Part shown: piece after piece, positions 54,566-58,209 of the stretch
How positions within the stretch are numbered: position 1 is the first letter of the stretch
How the letters are laid out: each line of letters starts with the position of its first letter
Notes under the pieces: model-generated
The model's input: only the letters and a program-made list of their open reading frames with translations
Databases searched by the model: none
What the model was told of the DNA's origin: nothing
NCBI GenBank assembly: GCA_964455625.1
Contig: CAYVXZ010000002.1
Coordinates: 60,949 to 124,948, forward strand
Reading direction: 5' to 3'
Origin: an uncultured Planctomycetales bacterium
GTDB taxonomy: Bacteria > Planctomycetota > SBBH01
DNA: 64,000 nt
Position numbers and translations under genes: made by a program

Positions 54566-55033
54566 TCAGCGCTCCGGCAGGTCCCTTGCGCCGTCGGCCG
54601 GTACGGTGTTCTCCGCTTTCGCCCTTTTGCTCAAGGTCTCGAGTTCCTTGATCACCTTTTCCGCGGCGTCGGGCGGGAAGCAGGACGCGATCAGTTCGGG
54701 TCCCTTGGGCGTGCGTTTCACGAGATCCACGCCTCCGACTCCGTCCGCGCCGTTGGGCACGGTGTCATATGTGATTCCGATGGTCTTTCCCGCTCCTGCA
54801 GCGTTGAGTTCATCAACGATAAACTCCGACGCGCAGGGTTTGAGGCCGGTCGCGATGATCTCATGCTTCGTGTCCTTGGCTTTTTCGTCGGGAATAGTCC
54901 TGTAACACGTTCTTCCGTCGTGTCTCGCGGTCTTGATGATCGAGACCATGCCGGTGGCGGCCATCACGCCGGCCGTCCAGACCGCCAGGCCCGCCAGGAT
55001 CACGCCCGTCCGGATTCTCCATCCCTTGTCCAC
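54566..55033 (-). CDS. small N-terminally membrane-anchored protein, paralog a (no internal stop)
   Basis: AAGGAGG then 6 nt then GTG at 55033. N-terminus WRIRTGVILAGLAVWTAGVMAATG resembles the hydrophobic N-termini of the two TGA-interrupted genes at 57233-58119. Confidence 0.45.
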   Translation of the reverse strand: MDKGWRIRTGVILAGLAVWTAGVMAATGMVSIIKTARHDGRTCYRTIPDEKAKDTKHEIIATGLKPCASEFIVDELNAAGAGKTIGITYDTVPNGADGVGGVDLVKRTPKGPELIASCFPPDAAEKVIKELETLSKRAKAENTVPADGARDLPER

Positions 55034-55122
55034 GCTCGCCTCCTTTTTGACCGCCCCCGCGATTCTCCGACGCTTCCCGAAGCCGGTCTGATTCGGGGAT
55101 TCCGGAGGCAACGGGGGAGAAG

Positions 55123-55818
55123 TCAGCTCTGGACAAGGCGCCGGACGAAATCCGAGAGCGAGGACGCCCGGGGTTGGGGGTGCCCGGTCCAGAGGTCGCC
55201 CGGATCCAGGGTCCAGCCGGCGAGCCCCGCAGCGGCGGCCGCCTCCGCATCGATCCAGGGGAGGTCGCCGATGTGCACCGCCTCTTCCGGGGTGACCTTC
55301 GCCTGCCGGCAGGCGAGATGGAAGATCTCCCGGGAGGGTTTCTCGACTCCGACGACGTGGGAATCGATCGCCACGTCGAAAAGGGGCGCGAGGCCCGCCG
55401 CGGAGAGGAGCCCCGCCAGGCTTCCGTCGGCGTTCGAGATGATCCCCAGGCGGAACCCGGCCGCGCGCAGGGCCCGCGCGGCATCCGCCGCTTCGGCATC
55501 CGCTTGCGCGTAGGGGTGGACGCGCTTGCGTTGTTCCTGGATCCTCGCCCAGAACGCATCCGGATCGACCCGACCTGCCGGGTCCGCCTCGCGGAGGATC
55601 GCGTCCCGGTAGAAGCGGATCGTCGCGGGATCCTCCGTGCTGCGACCCGCGCGCAGGTGGCGGTCCAGGTGGACGCGGGCGCGGTGCTCCGCGTTCCGGA
55701 CATCCGCGGGGGCGGCAGGAAGCCCGAGCCCCGCGAGGATCGCTGCGAGCACGGCATAGTCCTGGGTCAGGAGGGTGTTCCCCGCGTCGAAAAAGACCGC
55801 CTTGACCGCGCTTCTCAT
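55123..55818 (-). CDS. HAD-superfamily hydrolase
   Basis: VFFDAGNTLL (DxG/D motif I). ISNADG and GD-type motifs. 231 aa. Confidence 0.7.
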   Translation of the reverse strand: MRSAVKAVFFDAGNTLLTQDYAVLAAILAGLGLPAAPADVRNAEHRARVHLDRHLRAGRSTEDPATIRFYRDAILREADPAGRVDPDAFWARIQEQRKRVHPYAQADAEAADAARALRAAGFRLGIISNADGSLAGLLSAAGLAPLFDVAIDSHVVGVEKPSREIFHLACRQAKVTPEEAVHIGDLPWIDAEAAAAAGLAGWTLDPGDLWTGHPQPRASSLSDFVRRLVQS

Positions 55819-57179
55819 CGCAGGACCTTGAGCCGCTCCCGCGCTTCCCGCCCGTAGGGAGTCTCGGGTCCGGCTGCCTCGGCGCGACGGTAATGGCGGA
55901 TCGCCTCCTCGCGCTTTCCTTCCTGTTCCGAGATGCGTCCGAGGTAGTAGTAGGGGCCCGGGTGGACCGTGTAGAGGGAGGCAGCCTTCGCGAACGCCTC
56001 GCGCGCCCCGGGGAGGCCGCCGTCCGAGAAGCGGTGGATCCCCAGGTGGAAAAGCGGCTCGAACAGCTCGCCGTCCAGCTCCACGGCACGCGCGAGCGCC
56101 TGTCCGGCCGCCTCGGCGTTCCCCTGGAGGAGGAAGAGAAGCCCGCGGGAGGCGTGGAACGGGGCCTGATCGGATTTCATGCGGATCGCGTCGTCGAAGG
56201 CTGAGTGCGCGATTCCGGCCGCCTGTCTCCCTTCCGGCGACTGGATCTCCTGCTTCCGGCCGGCGAGCGGGGCCATCGCCGCGAGCCCCTCCGCGTGGCG
56301 GGCGTACGCCTTCTGGGCCTCGCGCAGGGAGGCGGTCGCAGCCTGGAACCGGTCGGCGTGCGTCGCATAGCCGGCGTCAAGATCCTGGCCGGCGAACCGC
56401 TTCGCGATCCACTCGCGGGCGCCGGCGATCCGGTCGTCGGACGGGGGATGGCTGTGAAAGAGCGCCTCGAACGCCTTGGGGTCCTTCTTCTGGAGGGATT
56501 TCAGAACCTCCTGGACGCGGATCATCCCGCGCGGATCCCAGCCGGCCTTGGCGGCGTATTTCATGCCCAGCGTGTCCGACTGGATCTCGTCGTCGCGGCT
56601 GTACTTCATCCGGAGCGCCATGGCGCCGACCCGCGCGGCCCCCGCGATCTCGTCCACGCCCACGAGGTCGGGGTTTTTCGCCTGGAGGACGACGGCGCCC
56701 AGGCGGATCAGGATCTCCATTCCCGTCGCTGACTGCATGTGGTGGACGCCGTGGCGCGCGGCGACGTGACCGATCTCGTGCCCGATCACGGCGGCGAGCT
56801 CCGCCTCGTCCGAGAGGCGCGCGAGGATCCCGCGCGTCACGAAGATCTGCCCGCCGGGAAGCGCGAAGGCGTTCACCTCCGGGCTGTTGAGAAGATGGAA
56901 GGCGTAGCGGAACGATCCGTCCTCCGGCGGGATGAAGGGGCGGTCGGACGCCGCGACGAGCTTCTGGCCGATTCCGTCGACGTAGGCGGCAAGCGCCGCG
57001 TCCCGGAAGAGTCCCCCGGACTCCTGGATGATCGAGGGGGCGGCCTGCCGCCCGAGGTTGATCTCCTGCCGGTCGGAGTAGAGCGAGATCTCGGTGCGTC
57101 CCGTGGCGGGATTGCGGGCCAGGCATCCGGCGGCGAGAAAGGAGGCTGCGGCGCAAAAAAGAATCCCCGGGCGGTCCAC
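55815..57179 (-). CDS. M48-family Zn metalloprotease with TPR region (BepA/YfgC-like), lipoprotein
   Basis: Lipobox LAAGC. HEIGHVAARH zinc-binding HExxH. C-terminal TPR-like repeats (YYYLGRISEQEGKREEAIRHYRRA). Confidence 0.75.
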   Translation of the reverse strand: MDRPGILFCAAASFLAAGCLARNPATGRTEISLYSDRQEINLGRQAAPSIIQESGGLFRDAALAAYVDGIGQKLVAASDRPFIPPEDGSFRYAFHLLNSPEVNAFALPGGQIFVTRGILARLSDEAELAAVIGHEIGHVAARHGVHHMQSATGMEILIRLGAVVLQAKNPDLVGVDEIAGAARVGAMALRMKYSRDDEIQSDTLGMKYAAKAGWDPRGMIRVQEVLKSLQKKDPKAFEALFHSHPPSDDRIAGAREWIAKRFAGQDLDAGYATHADRFQAATASLREAQKAYARHAEGLAAMAPLAGRKQEIQSPEGRQAAGIAHSAFDDAIRMKSDQAPFHASRGLLFLLQGNAEAAGQALARAVELDGELFEPLFHLGIHRFSDGGLPGAREAFAKAASLYTVHPGPYYYLGRISEQEGKREEAIRHYRRAEAAGPETPYGREARERLKVLR

Positions 57180-57232
57180 GCCCGGGGATTCTAGCCCTTC
57201 CGTCGCGCCTCGACGAGGCGCCCGGATTACTT

Positions 57233-57637
57233 TCAGGTGCCGCCAGGCGCGGCGTCGTCGTCCTGGGTATCGTCGACAGGGGCGGTGTTCCCCGTGCCGG
57301 CCCCGGGTTTCGCCTGCCCGTTCAGTTCCTTGACCTTCACGTCGGCCTTGGAGCGGGGGACCCCGGACTCGATCACCTCCATCTCCATCTTCTTGGCCTT
57401 GTCACCCTGCTTTTCCTGGGCCTTGATCATGCTCTGCTTGAGCTGGTCCACCGCGTCGTCGGGAACGGCCATGTACTTCACGTTCTCGCCGGTGGTGACC
57501 TTGACGATCGAGGTCTTCTGGTTCGGGTCCGCACGGGACCCGCCCCTGGGGCCTCAACCGGCGATCGCGTCGCCGGCCGTCCAGCTCAACAGTCCCGCCA
57601 GAATCGCGCCTGTCCAGGCGCCCGTCTTCGTGCGCAT
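57233..57637 (-). CDS. small secreted/membrane-anchored protein, paralog b, interrupted by one in-frame TGA at 57556-57554 (candidate recoding; may instead be two ORFs)
   Basis: GGGAGGTG SD then ATG at 57637. MRTKTGAWTGAILAGLLSWTAGDAIAG-TGA-GPRGGSRADPNQK...MAVPDDAVDQLK... Track ORF 57233..57481 is in the same frame as the upstream peptide. Confidence 0.4.
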
Positions 57638-57663
57638 ACGCACCTCCCTGGTTGCGGGGGCGG

Positions 57664-58119
57664 CTACGAGCCGCCCTCCTTGTCCTTTTTCGCCTCCGCT
57701 TTTTTTCGTTTCTTCTCGATCTTCTCGGTCAGCTGGGCCGCGAATTCGTCGGCTTTCTCGCGGGTGCATTCCGTGGCCTTGACCGTCGCCCTGCTCTTGA
57801 CCGGCTTCTCGCCCCGTTCGGATTCCGAGGTGCCCTTCCAGGTCTCGAGATCCTTCTCGTAGGTATCCAGGAGTTTTTTCTTGTAGTCGCCGAACTCGCT
57901 TCCGCGCATGACCGTGTAGGTCTCGGAGAGCGCGACACCGGTCTTTTCGGTCTCGACGACGATGTAATCCCGGGATTCCTTCTGGCCGCTCCCGCCGCGT
58001 CCGCCGGGACCCCCGCCGGGGATCCCGCCGCCGCCGCGGGGGCCTCACCCGGCCTGGAGCCGCGAGGCCAGGGAAACGATCAGGATCAGGGAACCCGCTG
58101 CCAGCGCGAAACGTCTCAT
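57664..58119 (-). CDS. small secreted protein, paralog c, interrupted by one in-frame TGA at 58047-58045 (candidate recoding; may instead be two ORFs)
   Basis: GGGAGGTG SD then ATG at 58119. MRRFALAAGSLILIVSLASRLQAG-TGA-GPRGGGGIPGGGPGG...KLLDTYEKDLETWKG... Same GCCGGNTGAGGCCCC context as paralog b. Confidence 0.4.
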
Positions 58120-58209
58120 CGGCACCTCCCGCGCGGCCCGTCCCGATGGCCGCTTAATCATTATACGCCCCATCCTGCATTTGGTTTCTTCCGTGTCTAT
58201 AGTGACGGG

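Follow-up and report, generated by a model that had tools for sequence, protein, structure and literature searches.

An in-frame UGA conserved at the signal-peptide boundary of two small planctomycete proteins, two candidate selenoprotein families

Selenoproteins made through SelB and a selenocysteine insertion sequence (SECIS), FdhF for example, carry a conserved UGA at one particular site in an organism that otherwise reads UGA as stop, with a hairpin downstream at a compatible spacing, and exported cases are known. The cited sections of a 2026 review count 119 prokaryotic selenoprotein families, most of them with UxxC/CxxU-type motifs and cysteine homologs, and list FdnG, DsbA/DsbG-like proteins and SaoB/SaoX as extracytoplasmic members (PMC13188914). 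Here we describe two genes, b and c, in a 64,000-nucleotide stretch from an uncultured Planctomycetales bacterium (the window: contig CAYVXZ010000002.1, positions 60,949 to 124,948), each of which has an in-frame TGA between a signal peptide and a small downstream domain. They resemble the SelB-dependent genes in the site-specific UGA, in the spacing of a downstream hairpin and in the predicted export, and we put the probability that they represent two new selenoprotein families, in which selenocysteine (Sec) would stand at the N-terminal edge of the exported product, at roughly 55%. We favour Sec because no other mechanism is well established for a UGA that is conserved at one specific site in chromosomal genes of bacteria.

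Three other systems share part of this layout. Lipoproteins (L-[AS]-[GA]-C; Lgt, LspA, Lnt) have a signal peptide, an A-G sequence, a special residue at +1, a Gly/Pro-rich tether and a small globular domain. Leader peptides such as TnaC, SecM, VemP and MifM are comparable in that b and c open with a short hydrophobic open reading frame (ORF) that ends in R-A-G or I-A-G before UGA and a Pro codon; superficially this recalls the IRAGP arrest motif of SecM and the stalling of TnaC at UGA. Finally, UGA is read as sense where it has been reassigned (genetic codes 4 and 25) or is read through by variant tRNA-Trp (PMC13092985).

The elements of the two genes are as follows.

57664-58119, minus strand: gene c through its internal TGA; 151 codons plus TAG, with 126 codons in frame after the TGA
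58123-58130, minus strand: Shine-Dalgarno (SD) sequence of c, GGGAGGTG, 3 nucleotides (nt) 5' of the ATG (58117-58119)
58048-58119, minus strand: predicted signal peptide of c, MRRFALAAGSLILIVSLASRLQAG; 24 amino acids (aa) with n-, h- and c-regions, and L/A at -3/-1 for a cut after Ala23
58045-58047, minus strand: in-frame TGA of c, candidate Sec codon; TGA in 4/4 lineages covering the site
57973-58044, minus strand: tether of c, GPRGGGGIPGGGPGGRGGSGQKES; 24 codons, predicted disordered, with an AlphaFold2 (AF2) predicted local distance difference test (pLDDT) score <50 across most of the first 23 residues
57667-57972, minus strand: predicted folded domain of c, beta-beta-alpha-beta-alpha, with a long, Lys/Glu-rich C-terminal helix
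57664-57666, minus strand: genuine stop codon of c, TAG
57233-57637, minus strand: gene b through its internal TGA; 134 codons plus TGA, with 106 codons in frame after the internal TGA
57641-57648, minus strand: SD sequence of b, GGGAGGTG; the ATG (57635-57637) follows 3 nt further on
57557-57637, minus strand: predicted signal peptide of b, MRTKTGAWTGAILAGLLSWTAGDAIAG; 27 aa, with an A-x-A site ahead of Gly27
57554-57556, minus strand: in-frame TGA of b, candidate Sec codon; TGA in 5/5 lineages
57512-57553, minus strand: tether of b, GPRGGSRADPNQKT; 14 codons
57236-57511, minus strand: predicted folded domain of b, beta-beta-alpha-beta-alpha, with an acidic disordered tail; AF2 mean pLDDT 71
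57227-57235, minus strand: terminating TGA of b with an in-frame backup stop (TGA AAG TAA), a tandem kept in all lineages

At these coordinates both genes run in the order SD, ATG, signal peptide, A-G-TGA-G-P-R, tether and domain, as an unpublished preliminary description of the window had outlined: the SD, the ATG, the signal-like N-terminus of 24-27 aa and the in-frame continuation past the TGA (126 codons in c, 106 in b) are all present. The context of the TGA is GCC-GGN-TGA-GGC-CCC in both, giving A-G-*-G-P-R-G-G as protein. Judged by its layout, c-b is a two-gene operon for two unrelated small, predicted exported proteins.

The TGAs are not products of one faulty assembly. The independent Logan assemblies of three runs (SRR8109492, SRR8109493 and SRR8109494) match the window at 100% where they cover it and reproduce both TGAs in 3/3, which excludes assembly error. 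Nor is the genetic code unusual. Among 48 ORFs passing a coding filter on GC content at third codon positions (GC3), stop usage is TGA 22, TAG 20 and TAA 6, and gene b itself ends on TGA, which bears out the earlier remark that TGA is an ordinary stop elsewhere in the window. Genome-wide reassignment of UGA to sense is therefore ruled out, and any recoding in b and c would be site-specific, TGA being otherwise a normal stop. We also rejected frameshifting, the downstream part lying in the zero frame.

Orthologs were collected by using the conserved M48 peptidase gene next to b as a handle, which added L051 (SRR6202010), L054 (SRR27828366) and L055 (SRR31738700) to L005 (SRR22388166). Nine sites are thus available: b in five lineages (the window, L005, L051, L054 and L055) and c in four (the window, L051, L054 and L055). 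On its contig, L005 has a b ortholog with the in-frame TGA and only the C-terminal part of a c ortholog. A sense codon in place of TGA in related genomes had been named beforehand as the telling comparison; the codon is TGA at 9/9 sites, always in frame with the downstream domain. The genuine stop of c has meanwhile drifted, from TAG in the window to TGA in L005 and TAA in L051, L054 and L055.

Several features of these copies bear on how the two sides of the TGA are joined: (i) between TGA and domain, at least four insertion or deletion events have occurred across the nine copies, all in multiples of three. The b tether has 14 or 15 codons through two separate one-codon insertions (in L005, where GPRGG became GPGKGG just after the TGA, and in L055), and the c tether has 24 codons in the window versus 18 in L051, a 6-codon difference, with at least two events counted in c and the frame kept throughout; (ii) the c signal peptide has been wholly rewritten (MRRFALAAGSLILIVSLASRLQAG in the window, MGKTGARSPILWVLALAFAFPLSARAG in L051, MHAQRSLILGALALAFSLPAARAG in L055), while retaining signal-peptide character and the A-G before the TGA, which is only sensible if it is attached to a passenger; (iii) in the b signal peptide, the differences between the window and L005 are mostly synonymous, with a ratio of nonsynonymous to synonymous change (pN/pS) of 0.19; and (iv) the shared motif wobbles freely at the DNA level (Gly GGT/GGC/GGG, Pro CCC/CCG, Arg AGG/CGG/CGC). 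Because A-G-U-G-P-R is in this way conserved as protein in two otherwise unrelated proteins, the residue encoded by the UGA would appear to matter.

Is the UGA actually passed? Counting from the TGA, an in-frame start (ATG, GTG or TTG) is first met 45 codons downstream in the window copy of c and 25 in that of b, and the stretches that lack a start hold conserved parts of the domains, RDY[IV]VVE.E..GV.LSETY.VM in c and SIVKV...Y.AVPDD in b. When c of the window was compared with c of L051, the two parts of the gene showed a like pattern of substitution, pN/pS being 0.47 from the TGA to the first start and 0.59 over the rest. Gene a, a paralog of b with an uninterrupted ORF, aligns to residues of b that lie upstream of b's first internal start. 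As far as the sequences can tell, then, ribosomes have to read past the UGA, since the conserved folded part lies beyond it in the same frame and has no start codon to itself.

This evidence bears directly on the idea that each gene makes two products, a hydrophobic leader of 24-27 aa ending at the UGA and a cytoplasmic domain made by reinitiation or independent initiation. Gene callers annotate the genes in just this way, an in-frame GTG with a G-rich stretch before it lies 8-9 codons past the UGA in four of the five b orthologs, and c of L055 has an ATG after GGAGGGGGG. These internal starts are not conserved, however: the window copy of b has GCG at the GTG codon. Separate initiation cannot explain the window copies, because no start codon is found for 25 (b) or 45 (c) codons of conserved protein. 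Independent ORFs would not have to keep a common frame, which is kept in 9/9 copies across the indels; the leader would not have to stay a signal peptide while its sequence is rewritten; and the internal stop would not have to remain TGA while the genuine stops drift. We consider two products very unlikely, and the termination-reinitiation arrangement offered in the preliminary description is contradicted by the non-conserved starts and the linked frame.

A leader working as an arrest peptide of the SecM or TnaC kind was likewise rejected. A peptide of 24-27 aa is still inside the ribosomal tunnel at termination, so that such a leader could not act as a secretion monitor. Unlike TnaC- and SecM-type leaders, those of b and c are too short to emerge, are always followed in the same frame by a domain without its own start, and have a downstream partner that is not a secretion-machinery gene.

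Decay or error, which the in-frame stop itself and an apparent frameshift in the C-terminal tail of b in L055 might suggest, is barely credible. Three assemblies agree; all five lineages, whose sequences come from six unrelated SRA projects, retain the TGA; and purifying selection is seen on both sides of it. Decay is contradicted by this conservation together with the intact SD sites, the putative -10 box that L051 and L055 share with the window, and the strong terminator after b. The argument made earlier from the TGA context, that it speaks against random decay, therefore gains from the kept TGA, the kept frame and the protein-level constraint downstream, which also dispose of the twin pseudogenes considered there. 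Taking the comparisons together, the UGA appears to be decoded, with assembly error, decay and separate ORFs effectively excluded.

What would the UGA encode? A hairpin follows it in both genes.

58005-58027, minus strand: c hairpin, SECIS candidate; 10-bp stem CGGGAUCCCC/GGGGGUCCCG with a GGC triloop, the loop 27 nt after the UGA
57524-57542, minus strand: b hairpin CGGGUCC-CGUGC-GGACCCG, SECIS candidate; 7-bp stem from 11 nt after the UGA

The b hairpin is as first described, with its 7-bp stem, its CGUGC loop and its start 11 nt after the UGA. A hairpin is in fact present at 9/9 sites, with a stem from 11-17 nt after the UGA and a loop from 18-27 nt that has a G among its first two positions. 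The bacterial SECIS (bSECIS) criteria of Zhang and Gladyshev (2005) reportedly call for an apical loop 16-37 nt from the UGA, a loop of 3-14 nt and a G among the first two positions, and the nine hairpins all have this geometry. The c hairpin is more stable than shuffled sequence (z=-3.3, with 0/200 shuffles folding as well). As a second null, the peptide behind each hairpin was recoded synonymously with codons sampled according to their usage in the window. Recodings that folded as stably or more so made up a fraction of 0.004 for the window copy of c, 0.06 (marginal) for that of b and 0.09 to 0.87 for the other seven. In the c stem of L054, two nonsynonymous changes keep the pairing (C-G to U-G and U-A to U-G), a suggestive but weak point in favour of Sec. 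After the UGA of b (57524-57553), two mutually exclusive hairpins can form, H1 (GGCCCC/GGGGCC) directly after the UGA and H2 (GGGUCC/GGACCC); H1 is perfect in L051, L054 and L055 and H2 in the window and L005, and a single U/G difference switches between them.

A number of points weigh against Sec. Seven of the nine hairpins are no more stable than synonymous recodings, only that of the window's c exceeding the null, and the tether consists mostly of Gly, Pro and Arg codons, which form hairpins readily. The b hairpin is kept in L005 and has a mismatch in L051, L054 and L055. Neither selA, selB, selD nor tRNA-Sec was found in the 64-kb window, where a tRNA search found none at all and Rfam, at gathering thresholds and at E<=10, returned terminator-like noise only and no bacterial SECIS match. 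In favour of Sec, several Planctomycetes, the group named in the NCBI label of the nearest relative, are known to have the full Sec machinery (PMC4807772). Unlike known SelB/SECIS selenoproteins, b and c have neither cysteine homologs nor a UxxC/CxxU partner. No potential redox partner of the putative Sec is conserved: b has no Cys, and the single Cys of c (about 57766, ...KATECTREK...) is kept in the window, L051, L054 and L055 and is Tyr in L005 (about 170-180), so that it cannot be an obligatory partner. No homolog with Cys aligned to the UGA appeared when c was searched exhaustively with phmmer against 1.84 billion representatives, where the only matches were c itself and one other protein. 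Finally, the five lineages sampled are fairly close to each other. Two further differences from the known selenoproteins concern architecture, the putative Sec of b and c lying at the boundary of signal peptide and mature protein on a disordered tether and not in a folded active site, and the same motif recurring in two unrelated proteins. In the cited sections of the 2026 review, the family table holds no G-U-G-P-R motif, and signal peptides, lipoproteins and secretion are never mentioned (PMC13188914).

Could the UGA instead be read without SelB, by readthrough that is either programmed or leaky? Decoding by a near-cognate tRNA (for Trp, Cys or Arg) would then be inefficient, most ribosomes would terminate and only a little full-length protein, perhaps under regulation, would be exported. 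All the evidence that the UGA is passed applies equally to this explanation, most of the hairpins are not demonstrably selected, and Sec machinery was not seen in the window. The terminator of b, too, has its conserved in-frame backup stop two codons on, as if UGA were somewhat leaky. This tandem (TGA AAG TAA, TGA AAG TAG or TGA AAC TAG by lineage) could be a safeguard where UGA is sometimes read through; it stands at about 732-740 in L005, about 2280-2288 in L051 and 1251-1259 in L055, and is found in L054 as well. Conserved programmed UGA readthrough in chromosomal genes of bacteria is, to our knowledge, very rare. Bacterial tRNA-Trp variants that read UGA do exist, but reading by an altered tRNA, like the reassigned codes, is genome-wide and a property of low-GC, reduced genomes (PMC13092985), whereas the window has 69% GC overall (65-74%) and TGA ends about 22/48 of its candidate ORFs. 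Moreover, Trp, Cys and Arg are each one mutation away from UGA, yet 0/9 sites have changed, and two unrelated proteins keep the same motif about the UGA, which suggests that one particular residue is needed there. We therefore regard SelB-independent readthrough as unlikely. As to the earlier alternative of readthrough or selenocysteine, a conserved UGA that is evidently translated stands, on the nine sites, their frame and the constraint beyond them, while selenocysteine is unproven.

If the residue is Sec, the following course can be proposed. Translation starts at the strong SD and ATG and, on the evidence above, passes the UGA into the downstream domain; SelB with Sec-tRNA(Sec) would be recruited by the hairpin 11-17 nt past the UGA, within the stretch that encodes the Gly/Pro/Arg-rich tether. 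The preprotein would then be exported by the Sec translocon and cut by signal peptidase I (SPase I) at A-x-A/G, the slash marking the cut. The mature protein would start G-U-G-P-R and carry its single selenol on a flexible N-terminal tether, followed by a compact beta-beta-alpha-beta-alpha domain. Because b has no Cys and c no conserved one, this selenol is unlikely to belong to a UxxC-type redox pair. More probably it would act alone, for example in binding soft metals or metalloids, or in an intermolecular diselenide or selenenylsulfide link between b and c.

The position of the UGA also invites a bolder version, in which Sec takes the place of the supposedly invariant lipobox Cys. Lgt would attach diacylglycerol through a selenoether, LspA would cut before the Sec, both enzymes accepting Sec for Cys at +1 of a relaxed lipobox, and the Gly-rich segment would tether the domain to the membrane; b and c would be the first lipoproteins on selenoether-linked diacylglycerol. 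In b the UGA lies exactly at +1 after ...[IV]-A-G in 5/5 copies, and all nine copies have G at -1 and A at -2. A disordered tether right after +1 is the classic lipoprotein layout, the adjoining M48 peptidase has canonical lipoboxes in the same organisms (LAAG-C, LLTG-C, LLSG-C), and paralog a appears to have a transmembrane helix as its anchor, a kind of anchor that is probably often exchanged for a lipid one and vice versa. We examined the signal peptides with the PROSITE pattern PS51257, {DERK}(6)-[LIVMFWSTAG](2)-[LIVMFYSTAGCQ]-[AGS]-C, writing U as C and using the M48 lipoboxes as positive control. The b and c signal peptides passed in 0/9 cases and the M48 controls in 3/3. Thus, unlike in lipoproteins, where +1 is Cys, the +1 codon here is UGA, and every copy breaks the rule through a charged or polar residue, which is Asp at -5 throughout b and Arg or Gln at -3 throughout c. 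In contrast, an SPase I-type site one residue before the junction of Gly and UGA fits all nine (A-x-A/G in 8/9, L-x-A/G in 1/9), and G or P is present as a helix breaker 4-6 residues upstream. The signal peptides were called by rule (a basic n-region, a hydrophobic h-region and small neutral residues at -3/-1) and not by a trained predictor. A literature search found no precedent and no relevant paper joining selenocysteine and lipobox, and costly Sec as a mere point of lipid attachment has no obvious advantage. The lipid-anchored version is quite doubtful. Since PS51257 fails in 9/9 and the SPase I site fits in 9/9, the signal-peptide rules favour cleavage at A-x-A/G-U-G-P-R and a secreted protein that would start G-U-G-P-R. 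In a less radical form of the same thought, SPase I may release these proteins and their N-terminal selenols may join b and c by an intermolecular diselenide.

How are the genes related? Gene a is related to b (BLASTP E=3e-6); b and c gave E=1.3 in BLASTP and a probability of 0.4% when their two ortholog sets were aligned with hhalign. By these measures b and c are not detectable homologs and have only A-G-TGA-G-P-R-G-G in common, in codons that differ synonymously, even though their AF2 models both have the beta-beta-alpha-beta-alpha topology despite the null hhalign result. Of the paralogy of a, b and c assumed at the outset, only that of a and b holds, and the implied notion of b and c as copies of one gene was wrong. 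Gene a does not have the segment D-A-I-A-G-*-GPRGGSRADPNQKT; its hydrophobic helix leads straight into the domain. Gene a with three Cys was seen in the window lineage only, and in L050 and L051 the gene of a HAD hydrolase runs directly into a convergent gene of 254-257 aa.

Searches with the proteins returned little beyond the family itself. Against Pfam and NCBIfam, the three proteins yielded noise only and no match to any selenoprotein model. A profile of a and b matched a, the truncated ORF of b and, at 75% identity, one relative, whose contig is L005. In word-indexed searches, b and c brought up orthologs at most and no Cys form; that with c gave no match, its own fragment included, though an exact-sequence look-up found the fragment on record. 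JGI metagenomes scanned with the b alignment gave no match, and among the at least 120 matches listed there for the DNA motif GCNGGNTGAGGNCCNMGNGGNGG, none stood behind a credible signal peptide. Within the window, a six-frame motif scan matched b and c only. A scan of the window for other TGA-interrupted genes gave nothing convincing; its crude filter also missed b and c, because their upstream segments include 5' untranslated region. From these searches, the A-G-TGA-G-P-R motif is known from this lineage alone and is not shown to be general. Public protein sets represent b and c by nothing more than truncated fragments of 79-113 aa that lack the signal peptide (window 57233-57481 and 57664-57909; P0002, P0003, P0011, P0012), because gene callers restart after the TGA.

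The surroundings of the two genes comprise the following elements.

58160-58165, minus strand: TATAAT box, putative -10 of the c-b operon, with a counterpart upstream of c in L051 and L055
57160-57192, minus strand: intrinsic terminator closing the c-b operon, a 14-bp stem with a T-run, also found 3' of b in L005, L051, L054 and L055
55815-57179, minus strand: M48 peptidase gene with TPR repeats, directly downstream of b; lipoprotein N-terminus (...FLAAG-C), conserved in relatives
54566-55033, minus strand: gene a, paralog of b; its signal anchor looks uncleaved, and it has neither TGA nor tether segment

A consensus scan for a full -35/-10 promoter of c-b found none. The rest of the 64-kb window consists of ordinary chromosomal genes (among them recA, uvrB, rpoD, tilS, nadC, a thiolase, sigma-54 activators, and HEAT, FG-GAP and VWA proteins). 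The gap between tilS and the M48 gene (57180-58200 in the window) is a variable slot. It is occupied by c and b in five lineages and by unrelated genes in L007, L052 and L053: an unrelated secreted-looking protein of 471 aa in L007 (8385-9955) and L052 (417-1832), and a 272-aa gene in L053 (1989-2807). L007, labelled 'Planctomycetales bacterium Bin_31' at NCBI (label unverified), was the one close relative brought up when genome contigs were scanned with the M48 neighbour, and has neither b nor c. In L055 (384-471) the region that carries SD and ATG in L051 is deleted, and the ATG of c (397) comes 7 nt after TATAAT (384-389), so that c may be translated there from a leaderless mRNA. The frameshift of b in L055, an apparent 1-nt shift in the low-complexity acidic tail (about 1190-1260) with the family-type ...GGT-stop in the +1 frame, could be an error of the Logan assembly or else a genuine alteration of the tail.

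The export and the N-terminal chemistry of b and c are invisible to annotation, since databases hold the truncated fragments alone. If the UGA is read without Sec, these genes would be a rare case of conserved programmed UGA readthrough in bacterial chromosomal genes. If it is Sec, b and c would be two new selenoprotein families without Cys relatives or a redox partner, of a kind that selenoprotein finding by homology to Cys forms would miss. These features, together with the placement of Sec on a flexible N-terminal tether and the recurrence of one short motif in two unrelated proteins, would then point to a use of selenium outside active-site redox, for example in metal or metalloid capture, in covalent tethering or even in lipid anchoring.

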